From an uncultured Candidatus Saccharibacteria bacterium (GTDB taxonomy: Bacteria; Patescibacteriota; Minisyncoccia; UBA6257; GWB1-50-10): DNA of 64,000 bases. The notes under the pieces were generated by a model, which was not told the origin of the DNA, ran no database searches, and saw only the letters and a program-made list of their open reading frames with translations. Location of the stretch: contig CAYISA010000003.1 in assembly GCA_964365955.1 (NCBI GenBank), positions 677-64,676 on the forward strand. The letters run 5' to 3'. The first letter of the stretch is position 1. Each line of letters begins with the position of its first letter. Below are positions 5,815 to 57,299 of the stretch, piece by piece. The position numbers and the translations under genes are program-made.

Positions 5815-8310
5815 ATGAACTCAATTTTTCAAAAATGGTTTGGCGGCAACCCGCTTTTAAACTACGAAATCATCGTGGAGCGTATCGGCGCGTTCGAAAT
5901 CGACATAAAAAAACTCACCGATGATGAACTACAAAAAAAATCGCTGGAGCTGAAAAATCGGATAAAAAATGCGGACGACCCAAACGCGGAACTCACGGAA
6001 ATTTTGCCGGAAGCGTTTGCGCTTGTGCGCGAGGCGGCATGGAGAACACTCCACCAACGGCATTTTGATGTACAGTTGATCGGCGGTATGGTACTCCACG
6101 AAGGAAAAATCGCCGAGATGATCACCGGAGAGGGGAAAACTCTTGTAGCAACTCTCCCCACTTATTTGAATGCGCTTACCGAAAAAGGCGTGCACGTAGT
6201 AACCGTAAATGACTATCTGGCGAAGCGCGATGCGATTTGGATGGGGCAAGTCCATCACGCACTCGGGTTAAGCGTTGCATGCTTGGTGCATGACGCGGCG
6301 TATCTCTATGACCCGGAATTTGATAACCAGCCGATTGATGCTGAACGTGATGCCGTCGGGAGTTTTAAAGTGATCGAGAAGTTTTTGCGCCCGATTTCGC
6401 GTCGCGAAGCGTATGCGGCGGATATCACCTACGGGACCAATCATGAATTCGGCTTCGATTATCTGCGCGATAATTTGGTGTTGCGGCTCTCCGACCGCGT
6501 TCAGCGCCCGCATTATTTTGCGATCATCGACGAAGTCGATTCTATTTTGATTGACGAGGCACGCACGCCGCTCATTATCGCGGCACCCGATCGCCAGTCC
6601 AGCGAGTATTACAAAACATTCGCAAAGGTGGCGGAACATCTGGATGGAAAAATTGATTATGATCTGGATGAAAAACACCGCTCGGTTATCATCACGGATG
6701 CCGGCATTGAAAAAGTGGAGAAAATGCTCGGGCTTACCAATATCTTTGCCCCCGAAAATGCCCGCCTGGTCCATTTTTTGGAGGAAAGCTTGAAAGCGCA
6801 CGCGCTTTTTAAGCGCGACAAGGACTATGTGGTAAAAGACGGAGAAATTATCATTGTGGACGAATTCACCGGACGAATGCTTCAGGGGCGGCGTTTTTCG
6901 GGCGGATTGCATCAAGCGATCGAGGCAAAAGAGGACGTTTTAGTGAAAGAAGAAAACCGGACATTTGCGCAAATCACAATTCAAAATTATTTCCGGCTCT
7001 ATAAAAAAATCGCGGGGATGACCGGAACCGCGCAAACATCTGCCGAAGAATTTCATAAAGTCTACAACTTGGACGTGGTAAGCATCCCGCCTAATAAACC
7101 GCTGGTTCGGAACGATGCGACGGACTTGATCTATAAAACGAAGGAAATGAAACTACGCGCAGTCGTGGAAGAAGTAAAAAAACGCCACGCAGCAGGACAG
7201 CCCGTTTTGTTGGGGACCACATCCATCACCAACAACGAAGCGATTTCTTCGTCCCTGTATCAGGCGGGTGTCCCCCACGAAGTGTTGAACGCAAAAAATC
7301 ACGAACGGGAAGGGGAAATTATCGCGCAGGCAGGAAAACTGAAGGCCGTGACGGTTGCAACAAACATGGCGGGACGCGGCGTGGATATTGTGCTCGGCGG
7401 AAATCCCGCAACTCCTGAAACAGCCGCGAAAGTACGCGAACTGGGGGGCTTGCATGTATTAGGTACGGAACGCCACGAGGCGCGGCGCATCGATAATCAG
7501 CTCCGCGGCCGCGCCGGACGACAAGGTGATCCGGGGTCGTCGCAATTCTTTTTGTCGCTTGAGGACGACCTGGTGCGCATCTTCGGTGGCGATCGCATAA
7601 AAGGAATTATGGAGGCGGTAAAATTTCCCGACGACACGCCGATTGAATCCAAGATGGTTTCAAAATCCGTGAACCAGGCTCAACAGCGCGTGGAAGGCGC
7701 TAACTTCGATATGCGGAAACACTTATTGGATTTTGACGATGTTTTGAACAAACAGCGTTTTGCCACGTACACGCGCCGGACCGAGTATCTGGAAGAGGGG
7801 CAAGCCGGAACGATTCATGTGACACTTGGCGAAATCCTAAACCGGTTCTTAGCCGCAGTAACACAGGAAATCGAAACTTCAAGCGAAGAGGGCAAGGAGA
7901 AGAAAATAGCGCTCATTGAACAAAAAATAAAAAATATTCCGGAGATGCTGGAACCCGAACGTGCCATCATGGCAGGCCAGCATTTAGTGCGCATTTTGGA
8001 CTCGCTCTGGGTGGAGCACTTAGAAAATCTGGAGAGTCTCCGCGAAACGGTGAATATCCGTGCTTATGGCCAACACGAGCCGCTCGTGGAATATCGCAAA
8101 GAAGCACATTTTCTGTACCAGAAACTGAATGCACAGTTCGATTCGCTTGTGTTTAATACCATCTTCCCGATTTTTGAGATGGATCTCTCACAGATAAAAA
8201 ATGCGCCGCAACCGACTGAACAGAAACCACCTGACGCGAAGGAGCCGGGCCGCAACGACCCGTGCTGGTGCGGTAGCGGAAAAAAGTTCAAAAAATGTCA
8301 TGGGAGATAA
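5815..8310 (+). CDS. secA: Preprotein translocase ATPase SecA
   Basis: Walker A motif MITGEGKTLVATLP, DEAD-like helicase domains, and a C-terminal zinc finger CWCGSGKKFKKCHGR. 831 aa. Confidence 0.95.
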   Translation: MNSIFQKWFGGNPLLNYEIIVERIGAFEIDIKKLTDDELQKKSLELKNRIKNADDPNAELTEILPEAFALVREAAWRTLHQRHFDVQLIGGMVLHEGKIAEMITGEGKTLVATLPTYLNALTEKGVHVVTVNDYLAKRDAIWMGQVHHALGLSVACLVHDAAYLYDPEFDNQPIDAERDAVGSFKVIEKFLRPISRREAYAADITYGTNHEFGFDYLRDNLVLRLSDRVQRPHYFAIIDEVDSILIDEARTPLIIAAPDRQSSEYYKTFAKVAEHLDGKIDYDLDEKHRSVIITDAGIEKVEKMLGLTNIFAPENARLVHFLEESLKAHALFKRDKDYVVKDGEIIIVDEFTGRMLQGRRFSGGLHQAIEAKEDVLVKEENRTFAQITIQNYFRLYKKIAGMTGTAQTSAEEFHKVYNLDVVSIPPNKPLVRNDATDLIYKTKEMKLRAVVEEVKKRHAAGQPVLLGTTSITNNEAISSSLYQAGVPHEVLNAKNHEREGEIIAQAGKLKAVTVATNMAGRGVDIVLGGNPATPETAAKVRELGGLHVLGTERHEARRIDNQLRGRAGRQGDPGSSQFFLSLEDDLVRIFGGDRIKGIMEAVKFPDDTPIESKMVSKSVNQAQQRVEGANFDMRKHLLDFDDVLNKQRFATYTRRTEYLEEGQAGTIHVTLGEILNRFLAAVTQEIETSSEEGKEKKIALIEQKIKNIPEMLEPERAIMAGQHLVRILDSLWVEHLENLESLRETVNIRAYGQHEPLVEYRKEAHFLYQKLNAQFDSLVFNTIFPIFEMDLSQIKNAPQPTEQKPPDAKEPGRNDPCWCGSGKKFKKCHGR

Positions 8311-8314
8311 AACT

Positions 8315-8617
8315 ATGAAATACAACAAATTAGTACGAGATAAAATTCCTGAATATATTCGCAAGAAGGGCGGTAACCCAATAACGCATATTGCCGATGA
8401 CGCTGAATACTGGCGGAAGCTTAAAGAAAAGCTGAATGAGGAGCTGGAGGAATTCAAAAAGGATGAAAATATCGAAGAATTTGCTGATTTACTAGAAGTG
8501 ATAGACGCGATAGCTGATTACAAAAAGTTTGATCGAAATGAAGTAGAAATGGTCAAAGAAAAGAAAGTATCAGAACGAGGAGGATTTAAAGATAAGATAA
8601 TTTTAGATGAATCATAA
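8315..8617 (+). CDS. MazG-like nucleotide pyrophosphohydrolase (small all-alpha NTP-PPase)
   Basis: MKYNKLVRDKIPEYI...EELADLLEVIDAI is typical of the MazG-like family. ATG at 8315, immediately after the secA stop. AT-rich. Confidence 0.6.
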   Translation: MKYNKLVRDKIPEYIRKKGGNPITHIADDAEYWRKLKEKLNEELEEFKKDENIEEFADLLEVIDAIADYKKFDRNEVEMVKEKKVSERGGFKDKIILDES

Positions 8618-8727
8618 ACCCGCATAACATTTTTTATAAATCGTCCAATCTGGTAGTGTCACAGACGGAAAAACGCCTTAAAATATAGAAAATCCGTGTG
8701 TGCTAGTCAATAAAGCGTAAAAATGCC

Positions 8728-9144
8728 ATGGGAAATAATATAAGCAATAAAGACTTATTCCAAAGAGCAAAAGAGCTGAAATTACCTCTAGGCAAATATG
8801 CTTTATTTGGTAGCGCACCGCTCGGAATTCGCGGATTAAAAGATTGTCACGATATAGATATTATTGTGACGGAAGATTTATGGAATGGATATAAAGAAAA
8901 GAACTGGGAGATAAAAACGATGCCTCACGGAAGTCAATATCTCTGGAATGACGAGATTGAATTATGGAAAGATTGGAAACCTGGTCAGTGGGACATCTAG
9001 AAATTGATTGGCGAAGCGGAAATTATAGACGGACTTCCGTTTGTAAAACTGGAATACGTTGTTGAGTGGAAAAGACAGAATGGCAGAGAAAAAGATCTGA
9101 AAGATGTTGAAACTGTAGAAAAATTCTTAAGGACACAGAAATAA
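8728..9144 (+). pseudogene. Minimal nucleotidyltransferase (MNT-like) interrupted by an in-frame TAG at 8998-9000
   Basis: FGSAPLGIRGLKDCHDIDIIV matches the GS...DxD NTase motif. The same frame continues past the TAG for another 47 codons (KLIGEAEIIDGLPFVKLEYVVEWKRQNGREKDLKDV...) to a TAA at 9142-9144. Confidence 0.5.
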
Positions 9145-9158
9145 ATTCAAAAAATGTC

Positions 9159-10198
9159 ATGGGAAGTAAATTCAATAACGTTATCTTCTGGGTTCATGAT
9201 TATCTTCATGCGATACATAAACAAAGTTATGCATTTTTATACCGCAAACCACCGGCTCACTACCTTGGGTATGTAAAACATGACAAGAAACCAATAATTT
9301 TGATTCCCGGTGTATACGAAAAATGGCATTTTCTGAAGGCACTTGCTGACCCGCTTTCACGCATGGGGCACCCGGTGTACGCCCTAGAACATCTTGGATA
9401 TAACACAAAAGAAATTCATCGTTCCGCTCAATTAGTTCGTGAGCTGATAGACAAGCAGAACCTAAACAACATTGTCATTCTTGCACACAGCAAGGGAGGC
9501 CTTATCGGTAAGTATCTTCTCGCTTTTAATAATAAAAGACGATAGAATAAAAAGACTGATTACTATTGCCACCCCCCTTTGGCGGTAGCGCGGTCGCGCG
9601 CATTTTTCCACAGAAACACCTGAAGGAGTTTCATCCAGAGCACGAAACCGTCCAGAAGCTGAAGAAACAGGGTGCGATTAATAAGAACGTTGTTTCAATT
9701 TTTGGTGTTTTTGATAACCATGTTTGGCCAGTGGAAAGTTGCCGCCTTGATGGTGCAAAAAATATTCAAGTGAATAGCTTTGGTCATCATAAAATCCTTT
9801 TTGATAAAAAGGTAAAAGAAATTGTCTTGTCAGAAGTTGAAAAATACAAAAGTGTCATGGCAAATAAAACATATGTCTTGAGATTTCGCGCGATCAATCG
9901 TGATATTTTTTGGCGATTAAAAGTGGAAAGAATAGAGACCAGAGCCGCAACCCTACGATATCGGCACGTCAAGGTAGGGGACGGGGTAAAATTGATCTGC
10001 GGGAAAAGTACATTTCAGAAAAAAGTGAAAAGAATAAAAACTTTCCGGACCATTCCTGCGATGCTTAAAGTCTATCGAGTCAAAGAAATCAATCCCAACA
10101 CCAGTTCCGCAAAGGAGTTAAAGGAACTCTATCTTAGTTTTCCGGGATATAAGGAAAAAATAAAGAAATTCGGTCTGATAGCTCTAGAATTAAAATGA
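9159..10198 (+). pseudogene. LipA-like alpha/beta-hydrolase lipase disrupted by two frameshifts; the C-terminal ~115 aa may be a separate ORF
   Basis: The N-terminal ORF carries the AHSKGG nucleophile elbow (compare Bacillus LipA AHSMGG). The C-terminal ORF carries CRLDGAKNIQVNSFGHH (compare LipA SRLDGARNVQIHGVGH). The joining peptide RIKRLITIATP is only readable in the third frame across an A4 and a C6 run at about 9530-9580. A possible separate ORF starts at MANKTY (9857). Confidence 0.55.
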
Positions 10199-10761
10199 GC
10201 TGCGTCTTCATTAGTGGAATCCCTGCGGCAGGAAAAAGCTATTTAGCAGAAAGGGTAGCGAGAGCTTGCGACGCTCGGCACGCCAAAATTGACGATTGGG
10301 TTGAGGAATTTCGAAGCGACCCAAAACTTGAACCTTGGGTAGATTTTTATTGGAATCAGGACGAAAAAAAGTATTTTAAAAACACTACATGCGAGAAGCA
10401 GTGGGAAAATCTGAAAAAACAATCGGAGATGTTATGGCCGGCCATCTTAGAAAAAATAAGAGAGGTCGAGGATTCGGACAAAGACACTATTTTTGAAGGA
10501 GTGAATATTTTGCCCCGTCTGGCAAGGCGCGATTTGGATTTTGACGGAATTGTTCTTCTGGGCGAATCCTACGAGCTGATTTTGGACCGGAATAAAAAAA
10601 GTCCACGCTGGGGCGAAACGGAAGAGCTGCAAATTTTGGAGGCAAGCACATTTTGGAATTGCGAACGGCTCTATTATGAAACAGAGGCTAAGAAATACGG
10701 GTTTAAAACTTTTTCTGACACCATTGTTGCCGAAAAGGAGTTGCTGCGGTTATTGAGTTAA
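10195..10761 (+). CDS. P-loop NTPase / putative kinase
   Basis: Walker A motif GIPAAGKSYLA. ATGA overlap with the upstream ORF. Confidence 0.55.
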   Translation: MSCVFISGIPAAGKSYLAERVARACDARHAKIDDWVEEFRSDPKLEPWVDFYWNQDEKKYFKNTTCEKQWENLKKQSEMLWPAILEKIREVEDSDKDTIFEGVNILPRLARRDLDFDGIVLLGESYELILDRNKKSPRWGETEELQILEASTFWNCERLYYETEAKKYGFKTFSDTIVAEKELLRLLS

Positions 10762-10763
10762 AA

Positions 10764-11720
10764 ATGCAGAAGAGTATTCTGATCATATTTATTTTATTCG
10801 CTATTCTTGTCAGCGGTTATTATTTTTTTGCGAACACACCAAACCCCGGTGCCGGACCAGAACGTTTTATCGTGCCGCGCGATAGGGGAGCGGATGTCTC
10901 TGCTCTTTTAAAAGAACAAGGATTTGTGCGAAGCGCTTGGATTACAAAATTATTCTTAAGTGTCAAAAGTGGGGATACGACGCCGGGCGGCTATAAACTA
11001 TCCAAAGGGATGAACGCGTGGGAAATTGCGGGTGTTTTAACGCAAGCGCCGTATATGCGCTGGGTTACGATACCCGAAGGGCTTAGAAAAGAAGAGACCG
11101 CGGAGGTTTTGGGTGCGTCTCTTATGTGGCAAGAAGCACAATCCAATGATTTTTTGAATGCATATAAAACCATCGGAGCCCAGTATAGAGAGGGTTATTA
11201 TTTTCCGGAAACGTATTTGATACCGACCGACGAAGACGGCGCCGTGGTCGCAAAACGAATGATTGATAAATTCAACGAAAACTTTTCTCCGTATTACGCC
11301 ATGTTCCTCAAAGAAAATATAAAAGAGGGGACAGCGATAAAAATCGCATCGCTCATCGAGCGCGAGGCCGCAGGACACAATGATATGCCGCTTGTTGCGG
11401 GAATCATTTGGAATCGGCTCTTGCAAAACATGAAGCTGGATATTGATGCGACTCTCCAGTACGCGCAAGGGAAAGTAGGGGACTTGTGGTGGGCGCCGAT
11501 TCACGGTCCGGATGCGCGGAAATTAGAGTCGCCTTATAACACGTATCTGCACAAAGGACTTCCGCCTACCGCAATCTCAAATCCAGGATCAGCCGCGATT
11601 GAGGCGGCGCTTCATCCCGCAAAAACAGATTGTCTGTACTATCTCCACGACAAAACCGGACAGATCCACTGCACCAAAACCTACCCCGAACACCAGAGAA
11701 ATATTCAACTCTACCTCTAG
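10764..11720 (+). CDS. mltG: Endolytic murein transglycosylase MltG (YceG family)
   Basis: N-terminal TM segment. YceG hallmarks include EGYYFPETY. 318 aa, TAG stop. Confidence 0.9.
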   Translation: MQKSILIIFILFAILVSGYYFFANTPNPGAGPERFIVPRDRGADVSALLKEQGFVRSAWITKLFLSVKSGDTTPGGYKLSKGMNAWEIAGVLTQAPYMRWVTIPEGLRKEETAEVLGASLMWQEAQSNDFLNAYKTIGAQYREGYYFPETYLIPTDEDGAVVAKRMIDKFNENFSPYYAMFLKENIKEGTAIKIASLIEREAAGHNDMPLVAGIIWNRLLQNMKLDIDATLQYAQGKVGDLWWAPIHGPDARKLESPYNTYLHKGLPPTAISNPGSAAIEAALHPAKTDCLYYLHDKTGQIHCTKTYPEHQRNIQLYL

Positions 11721-30641: not shown

Positions 30642-31352
30642 ATGGACGCTCCAAACAAAGGTAAAAATAACGGCGGCATAGTCTATATTTTGACTAATGA
30701 GGCAATGCGTGGCTACATCAAAATTGGAAAGACAACAACCTCCGTCGAACAAAGAATCTTGGAACTATCTCGGTCATCAGCGGTTCCGTTACCGTTTGAG
30801 TGTTATTACGCCGCTCGCGTTTCTGATATGAATGATATTGAAGAAGCACTCCACGATGCTTTTGGGGATCATCGCATAAACCCAAGAAGGGAATTTTTTG
30901 ACATCGCCCCAGAACGCGTTGTGGCTATTCTTAGACGTTTTGCAACTGAGGAAGTAACCCCTTCTCGTACGGCAGGCATAGAATCTAGAGAAGATGCTGT
31001 TGCGCTTGAAAAAGCAAAGAAAAGAAAGTCCGCTTTTAACTTTAAGATGTTGGATATTCCAGCTGGTACAGAGCTGAAATTTATACGCGATGAGAAGGTT
31101 ACGTGCAGTGTAGCTCCAGACCAAAAACACGTGATTTTTAAAGAAAAAGAAATGTCCTCTTCTGAGGCTGCAGCGCAAGTGTTGGGAAGTAAATGGTGGC
31201 CCGCAGGATCAGATTATTGGACATATGACGGTGAAATTTTAAGTGAACGACGGATACGTCTGGAAGAGGGCGATGAACCCTCAGAGGCCGAAATTGATGC
31301 TGCTGGCGATGCTTGGATACAAAACCAGCTCGATCAAGAAAGAGGGAAATAA
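30642..31352 (+). CDS. GIY-YIG / T5orf172-domain protein with a C-terminal DUF4357-like region
   Basis: GGIVYILTNEAMRGYIKIGKTT matches the T5orf172/GIY-YIG core. AT-rich. Lies 170 nt downstream of tRNA-Gln. Confidence 0.6.
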   Translation: MDAPNKGKNNGGIVYILTNEAMRGYIKIGKTTTSVEQRILELSRSSAVPLPFECYYAARVSDMNDIEEALHDAFGDHRINPRREFFDIAPERVVAILRRFATEEVTPSRTAGIESREDAVALEKAKKRKSAFNFKMLDIPAGTELKFIRDEKVTCSVAPDQKHVIFKEKEMSSSEAAAQVLGSKWWPAGSDYWTYDGEILSERRIRLEEGDEPSEAEIDAAGDAWIQNQLDQERGK

Positions 31353-42005: not shown

Positions 42006-42944
42006 TTAATTATTTATGACATAATCATAGACCATCCTGGATATTGTTTTCATAAACTCATTTGCCTTTTCTTCGTTTCCACCATTAAAACCGGCACATA
42101 AAATATAATTGCGGTTTGGGGCGTAAACAATTCCGCAATCCGAGAATGTCTCGTCATTTTTGGAAACCCCTATTTTATGGGCGACCAAAATGGAGTTTGG
42201 AACGCCATCCCTTATCTTCTCGTTGAAAGGAGTGTTTGTTAAGTAATCGAGAATTTGCTGAGAATTCGCGGCATTTATGTATTTGACATTATATAAAGCT
42301 AAAAACATATTGGAGAGGGTTTTGAGGTTGATCTTCGTGAAATTTGGATTTTCTCCGAAATCAAACGTCCAACCGAAACTTTCGTAAACCGGCTGGAGCG
42401 GATTTTTTATTCCTAATTGTTCGAGAGAATTCAATAAAGCGTTTTTTGCGGTATTGTCCGAGTGCTCCAACATTATTTTTGCCAATTCGCGAACGGTTAG
42501 TGATTCGCCCGGACCAACCATGTAAAGATCTCCAAAATTTTTGTCTAAATCCGATGCATCTAAAGTATAGACATCCTCAAAATTTATTTTCCCCTCCTCG
42601 ACCGCCTTAAAAAGGGAGATTGCGAGTGGCACTTTGGTCGTACTAGCTGCCGTAAATTCGTCCCGTTCATTCAATCCTATCCAAGACCCGCTATTGAGGT
42701 ACAAAAAATAAACGTAGGTTTTTTGAGGGTACATTTTCTGAACTTTTTCCAACTCCACCCTAAGCGGTTTGAAATTTATGATAAAGTGCTTGTTGAGATC
42801 GCTTAAAATAGTCGGATTGATAAGAGGAAATTGAGATTTATTTTCTACTATCGCTACTGTTCTTGAATCAGATTTTATCGAAAATCCTAAAACAAATCCC
42901 ACTACAAAAATCACCGTTAAAGCGAATATTTTTTTGGTGTTCAT
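42006..42944 (-). CDS. Serine hydrolase, class A beta-lactamase/PBP-like
   Basis: N-terminal TM/signal. SxxK (ASTTKVPLA), SDN (EHSDNTAKN) and KxG (HKIGVS) motifs. Confidence 0.6.
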   Translation of the reverse strand: MNTKKIFALTVIFVVGFVLGFSIKSDSRTVAIVENKSQFPLINPTILSDLNKHFIINFKPLRVELEKVQKMYPQKTYVYFLYLNSGSWIGLNERDEFTAASTTKVPLAISLFKAVEEGKINFEDVYTLDASDLDKNFGDLYMVGPGESLTVRELAKIMLEHSDNTAKNALLNSLEQLGIKNPLQPVYESFGWTFDFGENPNFTKINLKTLSNMFLALYNVKYINAANSQQILDYLTNTPFNEKIRDGVPNSILVAHKIGVSKNDETFSDCGIVYAPNRNYILCAGFNGGNEEKANEFMKTISRMVYDYVINN

Positions 42945-48680: not shown

Positions 48681-50117
48681 CTATTTTACCTCATCCCAGG
48701 AAATCTGAACGTATTGGTCTCCCGTCAACGGAAAATTCGGTGGCGGACCGAACAGCAAATTTCCGTCGTACGTGATATTCCGAATTTGATACCCCGTTCC
48801 ATTCGTATATGCAAACCCATAGCGCAAACTTGAGGCAATCATTCCGTACAGTGTCAAGGTATTACGAATATATCCAGTCCCGCAATTAGACCCATAGTAG
48901 TACCGCCCCGCACGTCCGCTCTGTGCGATTAGCGCCGCATCGATACGCTCAACATCCGCGCTGCCGAGTCCCGTATTGATGTTATATTCCGCGATCAGTC
49001 CGATCACGTCCGTTCCGTCATAATTCGTATACAACAGGTTATTGTTGAGGGTAATGCTCCCGGTACCAAGCGCGTTACGGGCCCCCACGACAAGGCGCGC
49101 TCCGTTAATTTGTCCCCGAATCCACGCGTGATCTTCCAAAAAAATGATTCCGTTTGCGGGGAACGGGTAATTTCCCAATGAGGTCGTCGCGAAAATAGTC
49201 CACGTCCCCCACCCCGATTGATTTTGCGAGTTTGTACAATACTGCGGAGCTACGGTAAGCGACGTAACCTTGTATAAATCGAATGTGTCGTCCGTTTTAA
49301 AAACAATCTCATATCCGTACGCGGTCGATGACGCCCGGTAAAACCCGGAGGCCTGTGCATCGGTGCTCATCTGCGAAAGCGTTTGTGTAATGCCCACAAA
49401 ATCCACGGGGGGCACGCCGACCTGACGACCGGACATAAAGATAGTTGGCTGCGACGGCATGGCGGCAGGAGGAAATGGATCAACGGGTGTGTGTGTATGC
49501 ACCCCGAATTCCCGATTAACGTCCGGATGCCAGGAATGATCCGGGCTGTCGACGTCGTCATGATCGGGATCATCGTAGGATGTTAGAACACTACTGATAA
49601 GATTGTGCGCTACACCATCGAAACGGATACCCTTGTTGGAATGAATAGGTCCGAACACTTCCGTTCCGGCTCCAAACCTCACATTGTCGTTCATCGCAAC
49701 CGCATATTTTGCGAGCGACGGAACGCCCAGACGCACCTCGATAATTTTTTCGATTGATGTATCGGTAAGAAGTTTTCCCGTGCTCCTTATTTTTACGACA
49801 CGGGAGCCCACCGGTGGTGGCGTGATATCAAGCGTAAATGTTCCGATTAGACTTCCCGATTTATCGTAGTAGTCGTGCACATAAGGCCCGGCTGTGCCCG
49901 TTCCGTCCTGATAATCAAGCGGCGCGTGTGCCAAGTGCCAGCGATAATATTCGATGCCCGCCTCGGCAACATTGAACGCCAGAAGCTTTCTAAAGTCCCG
50001 GACGGAAGAATTCAGAAGCGATGATGACCACACCACAAACCCGATTACCGCGGACAGTGCCACGGTGGAAAAAACGAGAAGTTGAAGAGAAATTTGGCCG
50101 GCCGAGCGTTTTCGCAT
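48681..50117 (-). CDS. Putative pilus-associated protein (PilX-like minor pilin/adhesin)
   Basis: N-terminal hydrophobic helix and a large beta-rich extracellular domain. It sits inside the pilin operon. Confidence 0.45.
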   Translation of the reverse strand: MRKRSAGQISLQLLVFSTVALSAVIGFVVWSSSLLNSSVRDFRKLLAFNVAEAGIEYYRWHLAHAPLDYQDGTGTAGPYVHDYYDKSGSLIGTFTLDITPPPVGSRVVKIRSTGKLLTDTSIEKIIEVRLGVPSLAKYAVAMNDNVRFGAGTEVFGPIHSNKGIRFDGVAHNLISSVLTSYDDPDHDDVDSPDHSWHPDVNREFGVHTHTPVDPFPPAAMPSQPTIFMSGRQVGVPPVDFVGITQTLSQMSTDAQASGFYRASSTAYGYEIVFKTDDTFDLYKVTSLTVAPQYCTNSQNQSGWGTWTIFATTSLGNYPFPANGIIFLEDHAWIRGQINGARLVVGARNALGTGSITLNNNLLYTNYDGTDVIGLIAEYNINTGLGSADVERIDAALIAQSGRAGRYYYGSNCGTGYIRNTLTLYGMIASSLRYGFAYTNGTGYQIRNITYDGNLLFGPPPNFPLTGDQYVQISWDEVK

Positions 50118-50120
50118 GGA

Positions 50121-50729
50121 TTAATTGGATTTTAAATTCCGAATAGTAACCAATGTGGACAGTGTGATGGAGCGGGGCGTGGTGGTTGTACTTATGTCGG
50201 CGGTGAACATAACCATAACGGAACGGATTGCCGTCACGTCTACGGGATATACGAGTGGGGCACCGGTGCCTGTATAATTCGTATCATAATAAGCGAACGA
50301 GCTCTGAGACCCGAGTAAATTTGTCACGGGAACAGAAACCGTTTCGGAGGATGATGGGTACGTTATCGGGTTGCCTACCGGACGGATTACGCCTTTTTGA
50401 AGCGTACCGGAAGCAATCGTGTATCGGACATGTTCCATAAGACCGTCACGGTCAATGTCACTAAAAAACGTAAACGTTGTGGAACTTGCGGCTTCGATGG
50501 GAAACGCTCCCGCGCTCGATTGGCCGATAGACCGGATCTCAACCACGGCCGTCTGCAAGGCCTGCTCCACATCCGCTTGGGTCGGAAGTTTTGCATCCAA
50601 ATATTTCTGAATATTCGTTATAATCCCTACAAATTGTGTGAGAATCACAACCAAAATAACCGAAATAGCCGCCCCCAAAATAAGTTCAAGAAGAGAAAAG
50701 CCGTTTTGTGAACCAAACTGTTTTTTCAT
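50121..50729 (-). CDS. Prepilin-type pseudopilin
   Basis: ATG at MKKQFGSQNGFSLLELILGAAISV, a prepilin motif. It starts 1 nt after the upstream stop. Confidence 0.65.
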   Translation of the reverse strand: MKKQFGSQNGFSLLELILGAAISVILVVILTQFVGIITNIQKYLDAKLPTQADVEQALQTAVVEIRSIGQSSAGAFPIEAASSTTFTFFSDIDRDGLMEHVRYTIASGTLQKGVIRPVGNPITYPSSSETVSVPVTNLLGSQSSFAYYDTNYTGTGAPLVYPVDVTAIRSVMVMFTADISTTTTPRSITLSTLVTIRNLKSN

Positions 50730-50730
50730 G

Positions 50731-52494
50731 TTACGGCGACAAATTGATTTCGGCCTGCGTCCATTCTCCCGAAACGGAGATGGAGCTTGTTGCCGGTAAA
50801 TACCCGGGAACCGTGGCTTCGGCAAAATAGGTACCCGCAGAAAGATTCTGGAAAAGAACCTGGCCCAATGGAACACAGGGACCCGAAAAGTATACCGTAA
50901 GATCCCGTAACTCCGGCGTTGTGCCCGCATCTTCCGTAGACAGCAGCACTTTGTATCGGAAATAGCGATTATTAGTTAAAGACGCGTGCAGTGCCACGGA
51001 AGAAGAGGTATAAAATGTCCCCGCGGTTCCGTCCGGACCGATAAAATTCCATGTCGTGTCATCGCTATTTGCCGCAAACTGAAGCCGGAGGCTGTCGGCT
51101 CCCGTTGAACCGGGCTGTGATGCCGGATTCCATAGAACGTTCCCGTAGGTGGTGGAGGTCGCTCCAAAATCCAACGTCTCCGAAATCAGATATGCGACGC
51201 TCGTTGTACTGTACCCACCCGCGCCGTACGCCATCGTAATTATTCCGGGAGTTCCGACGGGATCGACTCCCGATTGCTCCGAATAAGTCCCCGCGCTCCA
51301 GTCGGTCTGTGAACGATAAAATTCGCCAGTTTTCTTTGCCCCGGAAAATCCTGTTTTGGTAAGCTCCACGGTTGCACCCGGAATAGGGGCTCCGCTTACC
51401 CCTTCTTTGACGGTTATAAGAAGTGAGTTGGGGTCGGCTGCCCTCAAAATGAATGCAAAAACCGCGTTGGTAGCTGGCGCGATATATGCGGGAGTTAGAG
51501 GAAGAGTCCCTAGTAAATCGTACCCACCAGAATAAGAGAAGGCGTGACTCCCCCACTCGATTCCGGCATATACTTTCGTTCCGTCCACGCCGGTCTGCGA
51601 GCTGGTCGAGAATTTTATTATGTCCGGATCCGTACCGATCAGCTTGCTGCCGGTTATTACAAAGGGCTGACTGCCCACGCCGGCACAAAACGCATCTTTT
51701 GTTTCCATGACAAAAGGGGCGAGTAAATCGATCTGAAAGGTGACGGGGGTGAGCGTCTGTGCCAGGACGGACAGATGCCCGACAATCGGATTGGGATTTG
51801 CCGGAACACCCACGGGATAAGTTTGATCCGTAGAATACCCCACTTTGGTAACCGTAACTTGGTACCCTTGAGTGCTGGTCGGGACTCCCACCAGCTGCAG
51901 CACGCCATTCTGGTTGGTGGTATCCGTCAGATCGATCGCAGGAGTTGTGCTGGTGTTCACAACATGAACGCTTGCGCCAGGAACCGGAGCCCCGCCGGCG
52001 TTGATAACATTCACGAACAGCGATCCGCTATTCGCGCTGCTTTCCAGATTTTTAGGAGCAATGCGCGCCGTAAGGATAAGGGGGATAAAATTCGGACAGG
52101 TGGTACAGGTTGCTTCAAGCTCCACCAATTTATAATCGGCGGGTGCGGTATCATTCGGATTGCCACCCAAAATTCCGTCGAACGGATCGTCTATATTCCG
52201 CACCGTCGTTTTGATGGCAAACACTCTGTCTGTGGTAGTGGTCGCTATTTTAATCTGCTGCAACACCCCGCTCGGAATTCCGCCCTGCGTTCCCACCTGG
52301 TCAAACGGAAGATTCCGAACCGTCTCCATTTCCTTGTTCAAAATCGCCGTTCCCATCGTACGAAGATCGGTGTTGCTTAAAACGTCCACAACGGAACGAT
52401 AAAAAAGGAAGAGTCCGCCGAACAGCATAAAAATAAGTCCCACGCCAAGGACTACTTCAATGAGTGTTGCACCTCGGTTCCGTTTTTTTTGCAT
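50731..52494 (-). CDS. Large prepilin-type protein (minor pilin with a carboxypeptidase-regulatory-like beta-sandwich domain)
   Basis: RGATLIEVVLGVGLIFMLFGG prepilin N-terminus. 587 aa. Confidence 0.65.
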   Translation of the reverse strand: MQKKRNRGATLIEVVLGVGLIFMLFGGLFLFYRSVVDVLSNTDLRTMGTAILNKEMETVRNLPFDQVGTQGGIPSGVLQQIKIATTTTDRVFAIKTTVRNIDDPFDGILGGNPNDTAPADYKLVELEATCTTCPNFIPLILTARIAPKNLESSANSGSLFVNVINAGGAPVPGASVHVVNTSTTPAIDLTDTTNQNGVLQLVGVPTSTQGYQVTVTKVGYSTDQTYPVGVPANPNPIVGHLSVLAQTLTPVTFQIDLLAPFVMETKDAFCAGVGSQPFVITGSKLIGTDPDIIKFSTSSQTGVDGTKVYAGIEWGSHAFSYSGGYDLLGTLPLTPAYIAPATNAVFAFILRAADPNSLLITVKEGVSGAPIPGATVELTKTGFSGAKKTGEFYRSQTDWSAGTYSEQSGVDPVGTPGIITMAYGAGGYSTTSVAYLISETLDFGATSTTYGNVLWNPASQPGSTGADSLRLQFAANSDDTTWNFIGPDGTAGTFYTSSSVALHASLTNNRYFRYKVLLSTEDAGTTPELRDLTVYFSGPCVPLGQVLFQNLSAGTYFAEATVPGYLPATSSISVSGEWTQAEINLSP

Positions 52495-52497
52495 ACC

Positions 52498-53604
52498 TTA
52501 GCGGCTGATCCCTTGCGATATTGAATAGATCGGAACCACAATGGAAATCGCGACAAACCCTACAATCAATCCCATGATAACCAAAATAAGAGGCTCGATA
52601 AACGCCGTCAGATTTTTAAGCGAATTATCGGTCTCTTCGGTAAAATATTCCGAAAGATACGTGAGATTTTCTTCCAAATTTCCCGTGGTTTCCCCGATTT
52701 CTATCATACCGGTTAAAATAGGCGGGAACATTTTCTGATTCCCCCCGAGCATCTTCGCGAGCGGATTTCCCTGTCGAATTCCCTCGGCCGCGTCCAAAAG
52801 GCGTTTGCGGTATACTAGATTGTCGGCGGTGTTGCTGGTGATGGTAATGGCTTCCACAATTTTGATCCCGCCTTTCAGCAACACTCCCAGCACGCGCGTA
52901 AAATTCGCCGTACCCACATCAATGGTAAATTTGGAAAAAACAGGCAACAGCAGAATCACCCGGTCGATGGCATAACGAACTTTCTCGATTTTTAAAAGTA
53001 GACGGAACAGGACGATAAATGCGACAGCTCCTCCAACCAGAATAAAGAAATACTCGCGTACAAACCCGAGCACGGAAATTAAAATGCGGGTTGTGACAGG
53101 GAGTTTGATATTCAAATTTTCAAACGCGGTAATCAGTTTCGGAAAAATGAAAAATGCCAGAAACGCGTTCACGATGATGGTCATCACGAACAAAATGCCG
53201 GGATAAATCATTGCGGACTTTACTTTGCCGCGCAGTGATTTCGCTTTTTTCATCTCGTCAGACAGGTACAGCAGGTTTTCCGCGAGCGTTCCGCTCGCCT
53301 CGCCAACTTCCACAATACTAATGAAAAAATCGCCAAAAATGCTTTTGAATTTTTTGAAGCTCTTCGCAAGCGCCTGCCCATTATTAATATCTTCAATCAA
53401 CTGGTTCGTGATGCGCCGCAAACCGCGCGATTTTGTCTGTGCCTGAACGATTTTGAGCCCCTCGAACATCGGGAGCCCTGATTTGATAATAATCGAAAGA
53501 TGCCGCGAAAAATCAATTTTTTCCTGAAGCGAAACACGCGAAAATAGAGGAAGTTGGTTTTCCTTTTCGGCATTCACTTTCTTTAAAACAGGATTCTCAC
53601 TCAT
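52498..53604 (-). CDS. pilC: Type IV pilus assembly platform protein PilC (GspF family)
   Basis: Two GspF repeats and three TM segments. Its ATG overlaps the pilB 3' end by 8 nt. Confidence 0.85.
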   Translation of the reverse strand: MSENPVLKKVNAEKENQLPLFSRVSLQEKIDFSRHLSIIIKSGLPMFEGLKIVQAQTKSRGLRRITNQLIEDINNGQALAKSFKKFKSIFGDFFISIVEVGEASGTLAENLLYLSDEMKKAKSLRGKVKSAMIYPGILFVMTIIVNAFLAFFIFPKLITAFENLNIKLPVTTRILISVLGFVREYFFILVGGAVAFIVLFRLLLKIEKVRYAIDRVILLLPVFSKFTIDVGTANFTRVLGVLLKGGIKIVEAITITSNTADNLVYRKRLLDAAEGIRQGNPLAKMLGGNQKMFPPILTGMIEIGETTGNLEENLTYLSEYFTEETDNSLKNLTAFIEPLILVIMGLIVGFVAISIVVPIYSISQGISR

Positions 53605-54832
53605 GGATAATACGGAGAACTTCATCGATACTGGTCAAACCCTCAAGAGCTTTCTCAAGTCCGTCTTTCAACATCGTCGTCATCCCACCTTTCACGGCCG
53701 CTTCTTTGATGTCTTGCGCGCTTGAACGTTGCATTACGAGTTCGCGGATCTCATCATCCAGCAATAACGCTTCTCGAATCCCCAGACGCCCCTTGTACCC
53801 GGTGTTGCCACACGACGCGCATCCCACCGGCGCGTAGAAAGATCGTTTCTCTTTTTCAACGTACGGGATGAGCTCACCCAGACTTTCCACCTCGGCGATT
53901 GTCAGTGTTTTCTTTTTTTTGCAGTCCGGGCAAAGCCGCCGCACCAACCGTTGACCCATCGCGATATTTACGGTGGACGCCACCAAAAACGGCGGAATCC
54001 CCATATCCATAAGCCGCGGAAACGTAGTCGCCGAATCATTCGTGTGAAGCGTGGAAAGCACCAAGTGTCCGGTTAAGGCAGCATTCACCGCAATGCGGGC
54101 AGTTTCTTCGTCGCGGATTTCCCCTACCATCACAATATTCGGATCTTGCCGCAAGATGGAACGCAGTCCGCTTGCGAACGTAAGTCCGACCTGCGTATTC
54201 ACTTGAATCTGTGTGGTTCCTTCGAGCGAATACTCGATTGGGTCTTCGATCGTAATAATGGAGACTTCGGGCTTGTTCAGTTTTCGCAGAATGGAATAAA
54301 GCGTTGTTGTCTTCCCCGATCCTGTAGGACCGTTCGCTAAAATCATGCCGTAGGGACGCTTAATGGCGGCAAGCACCTGCCGCAGATCGGCCGGTGAAAA
54401 ATCCTGCGTTTCCAGATCCAGTGTGCGGTTTGCCGCCAAAATACGCATCACAATATTTTCTCCATAATACGTGGGAATAATCGAAACGCGCACGTCCACA
54501 TTCCCCAGGACTTCCGCCGTTACCCGAAACCGCCCGTCCTGCGGAACCAAATGTTCGTCGGTACGGAGACCCGCCACCACTTTGATACGCGCCACCAGTT
54601 CCCCGCGCACGTCTTTAGGAATCGGATTTTTGGGAAACATATCGGTTAGATTGCCGTCAATGCGAAAGCGAATGCGCATTCCCTTCTCGTCGGGGTCCAT
54701 ATGAACATCGGACGCCCGCGCCACATAAGCGTACTCGATAATAAGATCCACCAGCTTCACCACCGATACTTTTTCCGAAGGATATTTCAGCTGTTTCAGG
54801 ATTTCTTGTTCAATAATTTTGATATCGTACAT
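53597..54832 (-). CDS. pilB: Type IV pilus assembly ATPase PilB (GspE family)
   Basis: Walker A GPTGSGKTTT, Asp/His boxes, and a tetracysteine CPDC...CASC motif. Confidence 0.9.
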   Translation of the reverse strand: MYDIKIIEQEILKQLKYPSEKVSVVKLVDLIIEYAYVARASDVHMDPDEKGMRIRFRIDGNLTDMFPKNPIPKDVRGELVARIKVVAGLRTDEHLVPQDGRFRVTAEVLGNVDVRVSIIPTYYGENIVMRILAANRTLDLETQDFSPADLRQVLAAIKRPYGMILANGPTGSGKTTTLYSILRKLNKPEVSIITIEDPIEYSLEGTTQIQVNTQVGLTFASGLRSILRQDPNIVMVGEIRDEETARIAVNAALTGHLVLSTLHTNDSATTFPRLMDMGIPPFLVASTVNIAMGQRLVRRLCPDCKKKKTLTIAEVESLGELIPYVEKEKRSFYAPVGCASCGNTGYKGRLGIREALLLDDEIRELVMQRSSAQDIKEAAVKGGMTTMLKDGLEKALEGLTSIDEVLRIIHE

Positions 54833-54876
54833 GACTCTATTATAGTATATTTAACACATAGGCGTATCATTACACG

Positions 54877-55074
54877 ATGGATATTATCTCGCACGAACTC
54901 TGGGGAGACATCGCGGTGGGACCCTTTTCGAACTATGAGTTTGATGGGATCTCGTGGGGACATCCGTCTATTTTTATTCCGAACGTGATGCTCCTTATTG
55001 CCGTGTATGCTCTTTTCTTCTTCTATCGCTACAAAACCGCAAAAAAATTATTCCTGAAAGAAAAACATGTTTGA
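54877..55074 (+). CDS. Small membrane protein (65 aa)
   Basis: ORF with one TM segment. Low confidence. Confidence 0.25.
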   Translation: MDIISHELWGDIAVGPFSNYEFDGISWGHPSIFIPNVMLLIAVYALFFFYRYKTAKKLFLKEKHV

Positions 55075-55534
55075 CGTAACTCTGTGTTTTCTTACGCGTC
55101 CGAATGAGGTTCTTCTCGCTATAAAAAAGCGGGGATTCGGCGCAGGAAAATGGAATGGGATCGGCGGAAAGGTAATACCCGACGAAACAATCCCCGCGGC
55201 CGCATGCCGTGAGATACAGGAGGAAATCGGCGTCATTGTCCGAAAAGAAGACTTGGAGTCGCGCGGCACGATTGAGTTTTTCTTTCCGCACAAGCCCGAA
55301 TGGAATCAGCGTCTTCATATCTTTTTTGTAAAGTCATGGGAATTGGAACCGCAGGAATCCGAAGAAATGCGTCCGCTCTGGTATGCGCACGACCAAATTC
55401 CCTACAATGAAATGTGGGTAGATGACTTCCACTGGCTTCCGCGGGTACTTGCCGGAAAATCCATTCGCGCAACCTTTCGTTTCAAGCACGGCTTTGACAA
55501 CGAGTTGGAACAAATGGATATAAAGGAAATATAA
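55067..55534 (+). CDS. NUDIX hydrolase
   Basis: Nudix box GGKVIPDETIPAAACREIQEEIGV. Confidence 0.8.
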   Translation: MFDVTLCFLTRPNEVLLAIKKRGFGAGKWNGIGGKVIPDETIPAAACREIQEEIGVIVRKEDLESRGTIEFFFPHKPEWNQRLHIFFVKSWELEPQESEEMRPLWYAHDQIPYNEMWVDDFHWLPRVLAGKSIRATFRFKHGFDNELEQMDIKEI

Positions 55535-55535
55535 A

Positions 55536-55566
55536 AACCCGCATCTACAAGGTGCGGGTTTTAAAA
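55536..55566. terminator. Bidirectional rho-independent terminator
   Basis: cccgc-atctacaaggt-gcggg hairpin with an A run upstream and a T run downstream. Serves NUDIX (+) and the DUF378 gene (-). Confidence 0.5.
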
Positions 55567-55576
55567 AATCAAAACC

Positions 55577-55804
55577 TTACTTCGCCATTGGCTGTGCGGA
55601 CATATTTTTTTTCTCACACATCTTGCAATTTTTCGCGTGCGTTACGACTTCATAAATCGCGGAAAGTCCCACGAGGACATAGACAACTTTCATAAACAAA
55701 CCCCACCCGTCACTCATCGACCAGTCACCAAGACCGACATTAAACACTTCAAGCAACCAGTTCAAGCCACCGATCACAAGAAGAATAAACGTAACTTTAT
55801 GCAT
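55577..55804 (-). CDS. DUF378-family small membrane protein
   Basis: ILLVIGGLNWLLEVFNV...VYVLVGLSAIY resembles DUF378. Confidence 0.5.
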   Translation of the reverse strand: MHKVTFILLVIGGLNWLLEVFNVGLGDWSMSDGWGLFMKVVYVLVGLSAIYEVVTHAKNCKMCEKKNMSAQPMAK

Positions 55805-55869
55805 AATTTTAAATCAAACTTCTGTCGACCTTTCGACTCTTCTATTTTATCACATTCGCACTACCAATT

Positions 55870-56406
55870 TTATCCACCAAAAGGCGCGGAGTGAGCTTTC
55901 ACCGCAATTTCCTCCGTGTTGGCGCGCTTCATCAATTCCTGTTGCAATCGTTCCGCGAAAGTGTGTTCGAGCGCGGGTAAAATAATCGGTTTTTGCGACG
56001 CTCGGGTCGGATCCTCTCCTTCTGCATGCGCAATCGAAAAACTCACATCACTTGTCCCAATCAACTGATCCACAATCCCCCGTTCAATCACCACATTTTG
56101 AACTCTACGAAACGGGACCACTACTTCCGTTTGGCGCAGAATGCCGCGCGTGATCGCAATAGAATCTTTCCCGAGCTCGATGCGATAGCGAATGTAATCA
56201 AACCAACCGATAAAAATGGAGATGAGTAGAACAAATACGCTTATCCCAACCCCCGCAAGCGTAATGCTCCCGAGCGTGGGCACCGAACCAATCACGCTAT
56301 TCGCCGCAAGCATAACCCCGAGCAGAAAAACACCGAGCCCAATGCGGCGCATCAGGAGTAGAAAAAAAGTCCTGGGACCCAACTGTTGGAATACGCGTTC
56401 TTCCAT
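55870..56406 (-). CDS. Membrane protein with a bacterial PH domain (YdbS/YdbT-like, bPH_2)
   Basis: Two TM helices followed by a PH-like fold (ITRGILRQTEVVVPFRRVQNVVIERG). Confidence 0.5.
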   Translation of the reverse strand: MEERVFQQLGPRTFFLLLMRRIGLGVFLLGVMLAANSVIGSVPTLGSITLAGVGISVFVLLISIFIGWFDYIRYRIELGKDSIAITRGILRQTEVVVPFRRVQNVVIERGIVDQLIGTSDVSFSIAHAEGEDPTRASQKPIILPALEHTFAERLQQELMKRANTEEIAVKAHSAPFGG

Positions 56407-56457
56407 CTGTTTTATTCTACACTATTCTTTGTGCATGCTTTCGTCTACGCAGGATAC

Positions 56458-56901: not shown

Positions 56902-56910
56902 TCCTTATAA

Positions 56911-56948: not shown

Positions 56949-56952
56949 TATC

Positions 56953-57297: not shown

Positions 57298-57299
57298 CC

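Follow-up and report, generated by a model that had tools for sequence, protein, structure and literature searches.

The SEC-C tail of secA as a probable integration site in Patescibacteria, and an array of secA-tail copies in a Candidatus Saccharibacteria genome

The ends of tRNA and tmRNA genes are among the sites where prophages and genomic islands integrate, the element carrying a replacement copy of the gene end. In Streptococcus thermophilus, the 3' end of fda (ICESt1/ICESt3) is a site of tandem accretion and of cis-mobilizable elements (CIMEs), and the proposed mode of growth for its arrays is that elements integrate again and again into an att copy already in place. In the hypervariable islands of Prochlorococcus, partial copies of tRNA 3' ends recur and are taken to be scars left by repeated phage integration, often where no integrase is present. 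The attC sites of integrons are imperfect palindromes of 55-140 nt that follow each ORF, and Xer/dif (pdif-type) modules are flanked by dyad-symmetric, dif-like sites of 28 bp whose orientation alternates. Integration of prophages and islands at conserved gene ends has also been described for the dusA-specific integrases (PMC4482086), and ffs is the integration site of phage phiEf11 (PMC12540744).

In this work, we analysed a 64-kb stretch of DNA from an uncultured Candidatus Saccharibacteria bacterium of the Patescibacteria or CPR (the window, 64,000 nucleotides in full), in which four copies of the secA 3' end, the functional one included, are found from secA towards mltG. The system studied here resembles integration at tRNA/tmRNA genes, dusA and ffs in that a tyrosine integrase adjoins attP, attP mimics the host gene end, the gene stays intact and direct repeats flank the insert; unlike in those cases, the gene end is that of secA with its SEC-C zinc-finger tail, for which we found no paper describing it as an integration site, and the window holds a four-copy array with no element genes left. 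Among the marks of att scars, co-oriented gene-end repeats with an intact target were observed, together with attP, attL and attR forms in relatives and empty or varied sites; in the window itself, no integrase gene adjoins a repeat and no mobile-element genes lie in the inserted DNA.

As with the CIMEs at fda, co-oriented putative att copies lie behind one protein-coding gene and bound segments that lack an integrase, and an integrase family is found in CPR genomes and phages; unlike those CIMEs, the segments of the window are single, apparently promoterless ORFs flush with the att copies, and the att copy also contributes the start codon of the gene behind it. The islands of Prochlorococcus likewise contain multiple att-like fragments of the target gene scattered through the island, whereas here the target is protein-coding, the scars are in register with gene starts and the island measures only 2.4 kb. 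With integron arrays the locus shares co-oriented, tightly packed single-ORF units, each bounded by a copy of a putative recombination site and located downstream of a fixed insertion point, the newest nearest to that point. It differs from them in that no intI lies beside the array among the ORFs examined, the insertion point is the secA end, and the site, which phage-type XerD-like integrases use, mimics a coding sequence; furthermore, an inverted-repeat scan of 8200-10900 revealed neither attC-type imperfect palindromes nor a recurring hairpin at the tail copies. Modules of the pdif type were rejected as a counterpart, all window copies having the same orientation and showing no dyad beyond CCATGG in their alignment.

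Copies of the secA end and the genes of the secA-mltG island

The degenerate secA end AARTGYCATGGNARNTAA occurs at four sites (8293, 8721, 9152 and 9850), the first being the true secA end, against an expectation of 0.03, and four matches were obtained in no shuffle. An earlier note on this DNA had counted three tail copies, the one at 9850 having been missed; the perfect 19-bp repeat that it had reported was recovered as an exact match of TTCAAAAAATGTCATGGGA at 8287-8305 and 9146-9164 (0.07 matches expected by chance), and its near-copy at 8719-8738 was identified as tail copy 2 in both motif and profile searches. A profile built from 28 secA tails retrieved copies 2-4, on the + strand throughout; all copies are on this strand and downstream of intact secA, and they form the top direct-repeat family of the entire 64 kb. 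They are coding-sequence fragments of 20-32 nt whose sequences differ from one another, with the secA 3' end motif KCHG[RK] followed by a stop, and the stop codon of secA is retained in all four, as had been claimed for the three then counted. Further, the ORF behind each of copies 2-4 takes its start codon, an ATG within the His-Gly codons (CATGG), from that copy, which agrees with what had been noted for the nucleotidyltransferase and lipase genes and extends to the gene behind copy 4.

It is very improbable that these copies, instead of being scars, each have a function of their own, either as small SEC-C zinc-finger peptides or as a convergent translation-start motif. Phages and proteins other than SecA do carry SEC-C tails, one relative (L108) has another complete SEC-C ORF after secA, and in two others (L039, L043) the end of an ORF of cluster c116 is an in-frame SEC-C-like tail. 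However, frame analysis has already largely refuted this explanation: read in the secA frame, copies 2-4 comprise only 5-12 codons and lack the first two cysteines, and copy 2 cannot encode a zinc finger because a stop codon stands immediately upstream in that frame. Moreover, 19 nt of exact identity and the secA stop in all four copies would be unexpected under convergence.

Table 1. Features of the secA-mltG region (positions within the window)
Feature	Position	Strand	Remarks
secA, 831 aa	5815..8310	+	ORF list; ends in SEC-C zinc-finger tail ...CWCGSGKKFKKCHGR and stop
secA tail copy 1	8279..8310	+	Functional secA end, proposed attB/attL-type site; exact 19-mer 8287-8305
100-aa gene, MKYNKLVRDKIPE family	8315..8617	+	Homologues 55-77% identical
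Non-coding spacer, ~100 nt	8618..8718	.	No ORF; between 100-aa gene and copy 2
secA tail copy 2, AAAAATGCCATGGGAAATAA	8719..8738	+	secA frame stop-KCHGK-stop; gives ATG of nucleotidyltransferase gene
Nucleotidyltransferase pseudogene	8728..9144	+	Starts at ATG in copy 2; in-frame TAG 8998-9000
secA tail copy 3	9138..9169	+	FKKCHGK-stop in secA frame; 19-mer 9146-9164; profile E 0.003
Alpha/beta-hydrolase (lipase-like) pseudogene	9159..9856	+	Two frameshifts near 9536-9575 (three-frame translation)
secA tail copy 4, AAAAGTGTCATGGCAAATAA	9842..9867	+	QKCHGK-stop; motif and profile searches
113-aa gene	9857..10198	+	Starts at ATG in copy 4; clusters with L043 10361 and L076 13290
P-loop kinase-like gene, 188 aa	10195..10761	+	ORF list; weak AAA_18 and nucleoside-kinase matches
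mltG/YceG, conserved right flank	10764..11720	+	YceG E 1e-66

According to the ORF list, the island genes (Table 1) are co-oriented and tightly packed, and their promoter-like and terminator-like sites do not exceed the shuffled expectation. The island (8311-10761) has a GC content of 39.2%, the lowest of any 2.45-kb segment in the 64 kb, as compared with 49.9% in secA and 47.3% in mltG; thus, the low GC previously described against flanks of about 50% was upheld, whereas the value of about 37% was not. The secA gene is 43-71% identical to those of relatives, and Pfam recognizes the SecA domains and SEC-C on an identical secA gene (L073). The 100-aa gene most likely starts at 8315 (MKYNKL...), as its homologues do, the embedded ATG at 8300 being in frame with it; these homologues lie directly after secA in L009 and behind a tail relic in L023, L043 and L070. 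Its description as a MazG-like NTPase found no support, since Pfam, NCBIfam and PDB sequence searches returned no match, and the spacer that follows shows no similarity to the fetched phage loci.

Two genes were said to be disrupted, and the lesions were verified in the nucleotidyltransferase (one in-frame TAG) and in the lipase-like gene (two frameshifts). The former is 61% identical over its full length to a homologue in L135 (12270-12671), the C-termini being equally long and Met1 of the homologue aligning with Ile5 of the window, and its NTP_transf_2 match is weak. This gene is flush with relics at both ends, within 1 nt; such an arrangement would not be expected if a 30-kb prophage had decayed at random. 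The lipase-like pseudogene, 53% identical over its full length to L022 8450-9136 and matching Abhydrolase_1, has no stop codon of its own, and its final codons run into copy 4. As for the 113-aa gene, its homologues display weak ASCH-domain matches (E 0.001-0.01), and no ASCH match was obtained for the window protein itself. The start of the kinase-like gene overlaps the preceding stop (ATGA), and no tail copy stands ahead of it.

The lesions of both pseudogenes are also present in independent assemblies from other samples, which bears on the scarcely credible option that the array is an assembly or binning artefact, namely a chimera at a short repeat in a metagenome-assembled genome. The source is indeed such a genome, and breaks occur in some Logan contigs, both at the end of secA and within the nucleotidyltransferase gene. 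Nevertheless, the gene order, pseudogene fragments included, was assembled independently in several samples and by different assemblers, and the repeats are mutually different and shorter than the usual assembly k-mers. Among six to eight contigs with an identical secA or mltG protein, no strain-level presence/absence polymorphism of the array was seen.

No phage or element genes were found between the tail copies; the cassette genes are ordinary small metabolic genes, and their proteins have no homologues in the fetched phage and island loci. The earlier note had also stated that the window lacks an integrase. In agreement with this, tblastn with two members of the integrase family described below as queries found no homologue in the 64 kb, nor did tblastn in 152 fetched secA loci, and Pfam scans of the island genes and ten further ORFs detected no recombinase of any kind.

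A CPR integrase family with secA-tail mimics, and the secA loci of relatives

The integrases in question constitute a tyrosine-integrase family (PF00589, E about 1e-27) with 355 homologues, for which all organism names given by the sources are CPR groups; INPHARED contained no phage record with this integrase. Of the 16 integrase loci examined, 15 have a non-coding mimic of the secA tail next to the integrase gene: 8 of the 9 from IMG/VR (E down to 4e-10) and each of 7 further, distinct contexts. These mimics are not gene ends, merely 20-29 codons being open, and tail copy 1 of the window belongs to the same sequence class.

Three arrangements of the mimic were recognized. In the free phage contigs L191, L193 and L196, lysis genes, int and a small HTH gene are located on one side of it and ATPase and replication genes on the other; since phage genes flank both sides, the mimic is read as attP. 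The attL form is found in L105, where a prophage starts directly after the secA stop with homologues of the ATPase and replication gene of the attP contigs, followed by a terminase. The attR form occurs in L187, L229, L237 and L238, where the integrase-adjacent relic is followed by genes that directly follow secA in relatives; for instance, L229 and L237 display int, the relic, small genes and SecD-SecF, and the order secA, small genes, secDF is that of L088, L092, L103 and L131. The attL and attR junctions found do not include a matched pair derived from a single integration event. Judging from these gene orders and sequence similarities, the secA tail is most likely the attachment site of this CPR-specific family.

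Extra secA tails downstream of the gene are present in 8 of 30 CPR secA loci as compared with 1 of 80 other loci (Fisher p = 1e-4), and beyond them a single match with E<1 was found upstream of secA or on the opposite strand. A comparison with the secA loci of relatives, suggested earlier as a check, indeed yielded empty or differently filled sites. L064 is an empty site for a 1.8-kb insertion in L006, in which 15-19 nt are duplicated, and the gene behind the tail is common to both. The true secA end of L022 overlaps with the lipase homologue, which uses the same embedded ATG; on this gene order, the lipase is an old neighbour of secA and not a recent arrival. A deaminase lies directly after secA in L078 and behind a relic in L187. 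Further, mltG is probably an ancient direct neighbour of secA, as it begins at an ATG embedded in a SEC-C-like relic in L039 and also lies downstream of secA in L043. Overall, gene content after secA varies among CPR loci, and relic lengths range from ~19 nt to >110 nt with no single fixed boundary.

Formation of the array and its significance

The window repeats most likely mark successive insertions at the secA end. We regard it as probable that the secA tail is an integrase attachment site and that repeated insertions there built the array, and the comparative evidence supports the earlier proposal of successive site-specific insertions at the secA 3' end, each regenerating the target; it also fits an integrase encoded elsewhere. 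In CPR, the chromosomal attachment site would be the last 8-15 codons of secA (the SEC-C zinc-finger tail), used by two-domain tyrosine integrases borne by temperate phages and genomic islands. The element would bring a non-coding tail mimic, stop codon included, next to its integrase gene; recombination inside the tail sequence would leave secA intact, and a second tail copy would remain at the far end of the insert, ahead of the gene formerly after secA. In these compact genomes that gene would often start at the ATG in the His-Gly codons (CATGG), and the displaced copy would be kept because it is the translation start region of the following gene.

Repeated rounds at the secA-proximal end would produce the array of the window, namely secA, the 100-aa gene, copy 2 with the nucleotidyltransferase, copy 3 with the lipase, copy 4 with the ASCH-like gene and the kinase, and mltG. 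Copy 3 is interpreted as the former secA/lipase junction, and the 19 identical bases that copies 1 and 3 still have in common would mark the block 8306-9164 as the latest arrival. Since no element gene lies between the copies, we infer the role of the integrase in the window's own insertions from the shared site; the single genes may either remain from larger elements that suffered deletions or be small units that lack an integrase and were mobilized in trans.

A more doubtful explanation involves no recombinase, foreign genes entering by homologous recombination anchored in the conserved secA while the other end joins illegitimately or via the short conserved tail. Only events duplicating the overlap of secA and its neighbour would survive, because both secA and the neighbour's start codon are needed, and deletion bias would trim the relics to the start region. 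This would fit the continuous relic lengths (HMM start positions 8 to 41, and >110 nt in L070), the host-like rather than element-like nature of the cassette genes, ORFs that abut the relics as tightly as ordinary neighbouring genes do in these compact genomes, and the full relic of L070, whose tail type is not that of the secA end now present there, as would follow from an exchange of the entire 3' end. Conversely, the most recent duplications are short, with sharp boundaries (19 nt in the window, 15-19 nt in L006), GC3 of secA is flat up to the stop and therefore gives no sign of an imported 3' segment, and the direct-repeat scan found no junction duplications comparable to the secA-tail repeat elsewhere in the window. 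Furthermore, the tail duplication is already explained, because the same lineage has a dedicated integrase family with the tail mimic and its attP, attL and attR forms.

Integrase-mediated insertion at the secA tail, the reading preferred here, could also be taken further, to the rather unlikely case that secA-tail arrays are an integron-like cassette system of Patescibacteria served in trans by phage or island integrases. The unit would be a promoterless ORF flush with a secA-tail mimic of 25-45 nt, and the mimic would serve as the recombination site, restore the secA stop, and give the following gene both its start codon and its translational coupling. Excision would release the units as small circles, for instance a two-gene circle of 859 bp from 8306-9164, and the units would re-insert at the secA end of other genomes. 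If this were true, the region after secA would be a shared, shuffled pool of small 'house-cleaning' genes, and mobility of the small genes as units would make this a cassette system that does not belong to the integrons.

The genomes of Patescibacteria are tiny and tightly packed, and to our knowledge little has been described of their gene acquisition routes and phage integration sites. What is new here is a large CPR-specific tyrosine-integrase family with a secA-tail mimic, and with it a specific, widely used CPR integration site would be the zinc-finger tail of the essential secA, its integrase family being identified. As a marker, the secA tail may help to find prophage and island boundaries in CPR genomes, to link uncultured phages to CPR hosts and to read the order in which accessory genes after secA were acquired. 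The scars would persist because the genes behind them start within them, and it is unusual for a recombination site to be put to use in this way as a signal for translation.

Copies of the secA end in the window

The direct repeats after secA described in the earlier note were confirmed, with a fourth copy that its count had overlooked: the degenerate secA end (KCHG[RK]*) occurs four times in the window (0.03 occurrences expected), and the 19-mer of the secA end has two exact matches (chance expectation 0.07). These tail copies, of which copy 1 is the true secA end (putative recombination core AARAARTGYCAYGG...), constitute the top direct-repeat family of the entire window. Copies 2-4, all on the + strand, were recovered with a profile derived from the nucleotide sequences of 28 secA tails; they hold only 5-12 open codons in the secA frame, the first two cysteines are missing, and they cannot encode a zinc finger. 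The island downstream of secA displays a GC content of 39.2%, the lowest of any 2.45-kb stretch in the 64 kb, with 49.9% in secA.

Coordinates of the secA-tail array and of other features in the window and in comparison loci
Feature	Location	Positions	Remark
secA	window	5815-8310	C-terminal end ...CWCGSGKKFKKCHGR*
19-mer TTCAAAAAATGTCATGGGA	window	8287-8305; 9146-9164	exact, copies 1 and 3
Degenerate secA end AARTGYCATGGNARNTAA	window	8293; 8721; 9152; 9850	copies 1-4
Island	window	8311-10761	
Block, putative latest arrival	window	8306-9164	
First gene (100 aa)	window	8315-8617	
Spacer	window	8618-8720	
Nucleotidyltransferase (NTase)	window		starts in copy 2, MGNNISNK...
alpha/beta hydrolase (lipase)	window		starts in copy 3, MGSKFNN...
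ASCH-like 113-aa protein	window		starts in copy 4, MANKTYV...
Fifth 'copy'	window	8883-8915	rejected
9-mer TAAATTCAA	window	9142-9150; 9167-9175	directly before and after copy 3 core
Possible decayed relic	window	~10750-10775	at mltG start; not claimed
Low-GC patches	window	30642-31352; 42006-42944	GC ~0.40; ~0.38
Contig breaks (L241 end, L242 end, L243 start)	window	~8353; 8838-8866	equivalent positions
Tandem relics	L070	4446-4640	first contains GRNAPCRCGAKHADGRPMKYKRCHRK
Longest relic	L070	4446-4556	full long-type tail + linker
Conserved stretch after secA	L025; L040; L014	2074-2165; 1473-1606; 8572-8640	hairpin AGCGGAGTCCCGCCG
SEC-C-like ORF end (c116)	L039; L043	9783-9829; 9986-10033	KKMCPCGQNKKF[IV].CH..*
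Second complete SEC-C motif	L108	10895-11257	
Defence island	L233	1-11400	

Other candidates within the array were discarded. The fifth 'copy' (67% identity, inside the NTase gene) was taken as chance and is not detected by the profile, which gave no match at the mltG start either; the bases 'GGCACAG' on the left of copy 3, at first sight a phage signature, correspond to the native NTase C-terminus, according to the homologue in comparison locus L135. The spacer ahead of copy 2 showed no similarity to phage att flanks, recurring hairpins were absent from the secA-mltG interval, and terminator-like sites there were not above shuffled expectation. The 9-mer pair around copy 3 may have arisen by chance, the sequence being A/T-rich, or may be a remnant of junction formation. 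Elsewhere in the window, the two low-GC patches, with a T5orf172/MUG113-domain gene and a beta-lactamase-family gene, may represent further acquired genes.

Cassette genes, relatives and order of insertion

The ATG within the His-Gly codons (C-ATG-G) of copies 2, 3 and 4 opens the next ORF, including the NTase and lipase ORFs for which the earlier note gave this start. The NTase homologue in L135 is 61% identical, its Met1 aligns with Ile5 of the window protein and both proteins end equally, so that the window gene directly abuts a tail copy at each end and would depend on the embedded ATG. The first gene has its own ATG 5 nt past the secA stop, like its homologues; no indication of its function came from sequence searches of Pfam, NCBIfam and PDB, and its viral homologues are distant, with no tail or integrase near them. 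Two array genes are disrupted, as the earlier note had it: the NTase gene by an in-frame TAG, and the hydrolase gene by two frameshifts, the latter having no stop codon and reading on into copy 4. These lesions and the gene order recur identically in independent assemblies of other samples, and are therefore regarded as real.

The window matches the Patescibacteria MAG GCA_038061425.1, and the nearest secA relatives belong to Paceibacteria- and Liptonbacteria-type MAGs (identity up to ~70%). Judging by the match coordinates, the corresponding 50,217-bp NCBI contig would end near window position 49,619, and the final 14 kb (about 49620-64000) seem to lie past that record. A metagenome scan with the secA C-terminus retrieved distant secA genes only (identity <=48%), whose loci served as control set. 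Same-strand extra tails were found downstream of secA in L002, L006, L023, L025, L039, L040, L043 and L070, which makes 8 of 30 CPR loci, compared with 1 of 80 loci from other groups (Fisher p = 1e-4); beyond these, a single match at E<1 lay upstream of secA or on the opposite strand. The genes that follow CPR secA constitute a recurring pool of small enzymes, including HAD hydrolases, Nudix, glyoxalase, ASCH, HD, histidine phosphatase and alpha/beta hydrolases. No integrase was among the 25 (of 164) families listed in a Pfam census of 150 such genes. Where tandem tails enclose no gene (L023, L025, L040, L066), the intervening spacers displayed no similarity to phage att flanks.

Several loci show further tail-like sequences. 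In L070, the first of two tandem relics (i.e., displaced secA-tail copies) differs in tail type from the present secA end of that genome, and is followed by a perfect 14-bp hairpin and a short relic ahead of the MKYNKL gene; two DUF3850/ASCH gene copies lie at the bounds of the 3.7-kb insert. The secA genes of L025, L040 and L014 have a long-type tail (CPCGAK..DG...KYKHCHG), and the stretch directly after them resembles a tail that has decayed ((K/E)R(S/N)PAE...DGSGK), with a GC-rich hairpin, its conservation being unusually high for a scar. An ORF of ~230 aa in L039 and L043 (cluster c116) ends in-frame with a SEC-C-like tail, either a scar fused to the gene or a genuine SEC-C tail. The second SEC-C motif of the high-GC, non-CPR locus L108, ~300 nt past the secA end, resembles a small SEC-C protein in its own right more than a scar.

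Empty or differently filled sites, the comparison suggested in the earlier note, were indeed found among relatives. The MENNLEERV... gene overlaps the secA end in L064; in L006 it is found 1.8 kb farther down and preceded by a relic, 15-19 nt being duplicated and the insert encoding a membrane protein and a hydrolase. Similarly, a deaminase gene directly follows secA in L078 and lies behind a relic in the prophage contig L187. An intact homologue of the window hydrolase overlaps the true secA end via the embedded ATG in L022, which points to copy 3 as a former secA/hydrolase junction. Given that copies 1 and 3 are identical over 19 nt and the enclosed copy 2 differs, the block between them would be the latest arrival. 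In L039 the mltG start is an ATG embedded in a SEC-C-like relic (inside the c116 tail), which suggests that secA and mltG were formerly adjacent. Such nesting is consistent with insertions on the secA-proximal side. Breaks in three short-read Logan contigs of the same population, located just past the secA stop and within the NTase gene, could reflect k-mers common to other CPR genomes or unresolved array variants.

An integrase family paired with the secA tail

A tail-motif scan of viral contigs revealed orphan tails adjoining tyrosine integrases in L174/L187 and L166/L196, which match Phage_integrase (E ~1e-27) and are 55% identical to one another. Eleven viral integrase loci were fetched, nine of them with sequence after the integrase, and in 8 of these 9 a same-strand tail mimic lies 0.3-1 kb downstream (E down to 4e-10); the mimics are not gene ends, having 20-29 open codons and no start codon. 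The family comprises 355 homologues at E <= 1e-30, and organism names, wherever given by the sources, are all of CPR groups. The mimic recurred in 7 of 7 distinct further contexts, downstream of the integrase gene in L229, L233, L235, L237, L238 and L239, and upstream in L230. In L233 the integrase lies at one end of a defence-type island (Fic, a type I restriction-modification system, an SMC-like ATPase), not a phage; its neighbours in L230 are a serine recombinase, a Replic_Relax protein, an rve transposase and an NTase/HEPN pair. This integrase was absent from INPHARED phage records, and the literature searches turned up no paper that names secA as a phage or island attachment site.

Three forms of the site were recognized. 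In the free-element form (attP; L191, L193, L196), the mimic sits between two phage gene sets, with lysis genes, integrase and a small HTH gene on one side, and ATPase and replication genes on the other. In the left-junction form (attL; L105), a terminator and small ORFs come after the real secA stop, then homologues of the attP-side ATPase (27-29% identical) and replication protein (~50%), and then a ParB-like gene and terminase, which is the order predicted for a left junction. The right-junction form (attR) in L187 runs from amidase, integrase and small ORFs to a relic, a glyoxalase, a second relic and the deaminase; the glyoxalase starts at the embedded ATG of its relic and is 75% identical to the gene behind the relic in L002, and the deaminase is 73% identical to its L078 counterpart. 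Small genes and then SecD-SecF come after the integrase-side relic of L229 and L237; in L088, L092, L103 and L131 the arrangement is secA, small genes, secDF. The element-side sites (L187-L196, L229-L239) also share CCNTGYGGCAC 18-26 nt upstream of AAGTGCCAYGG; their GGCAC and GTGCC are reverse complements, an inverted pair absent from real secA tails that may give attP an additional feature for integrase binding.

Origin of the array and relation to known systems

Empty and occupied sites, the integrase family and the attP, attL and attR forms together support the site-specific insertion at the secA end proposed in the earlier note. A recombinase-free route, with recombination anchored in secA and selection keeping the secA end and the neighbour's start, could account for relic lengths from ~19 nt to >110 nt. 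Moreover, the window holds no homologue of the secA-tail integrase family, in line with the integrase absence noted before, and the fetched element loci gave no homologue of its other cassette proteins; the loci and contigs searched yielded neither a matched attL/attR pair (the secA search of viral contigs had no match on the L187 contig) nor strain polymorphism, contigs encoding identical secA or mltG protein all having the same array. The length spread and the window negatives are therefore the reason to keep this route under consideration. However, we regard it as improbable: the integrase system is present in this lineage, the most recent duplications are short and have sharp boundaries, and secA GC3 is flat up to the stop codon.

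The lone ORF-flush genes between scars could be leftovers of larger elements after deletion, or could derive from transduction-like carry-over of the donor's secA neighbour; that they are small integrase-less units moved in trans seems rather unlikely.

In its workings the secA-tail system resembles classical integration at conserved gene ends, and its array is similar to the tandem accretion and CIME arrays at other genes. Its layout is also like that of integron arrays; however, it differs in what defines them, with no intI among the window ORFs examined and no attC. What is new here is the target, the SEC-C tail of secA, together with a CPR-wide pairing of integrase and att site, and scars that survive as start codons.
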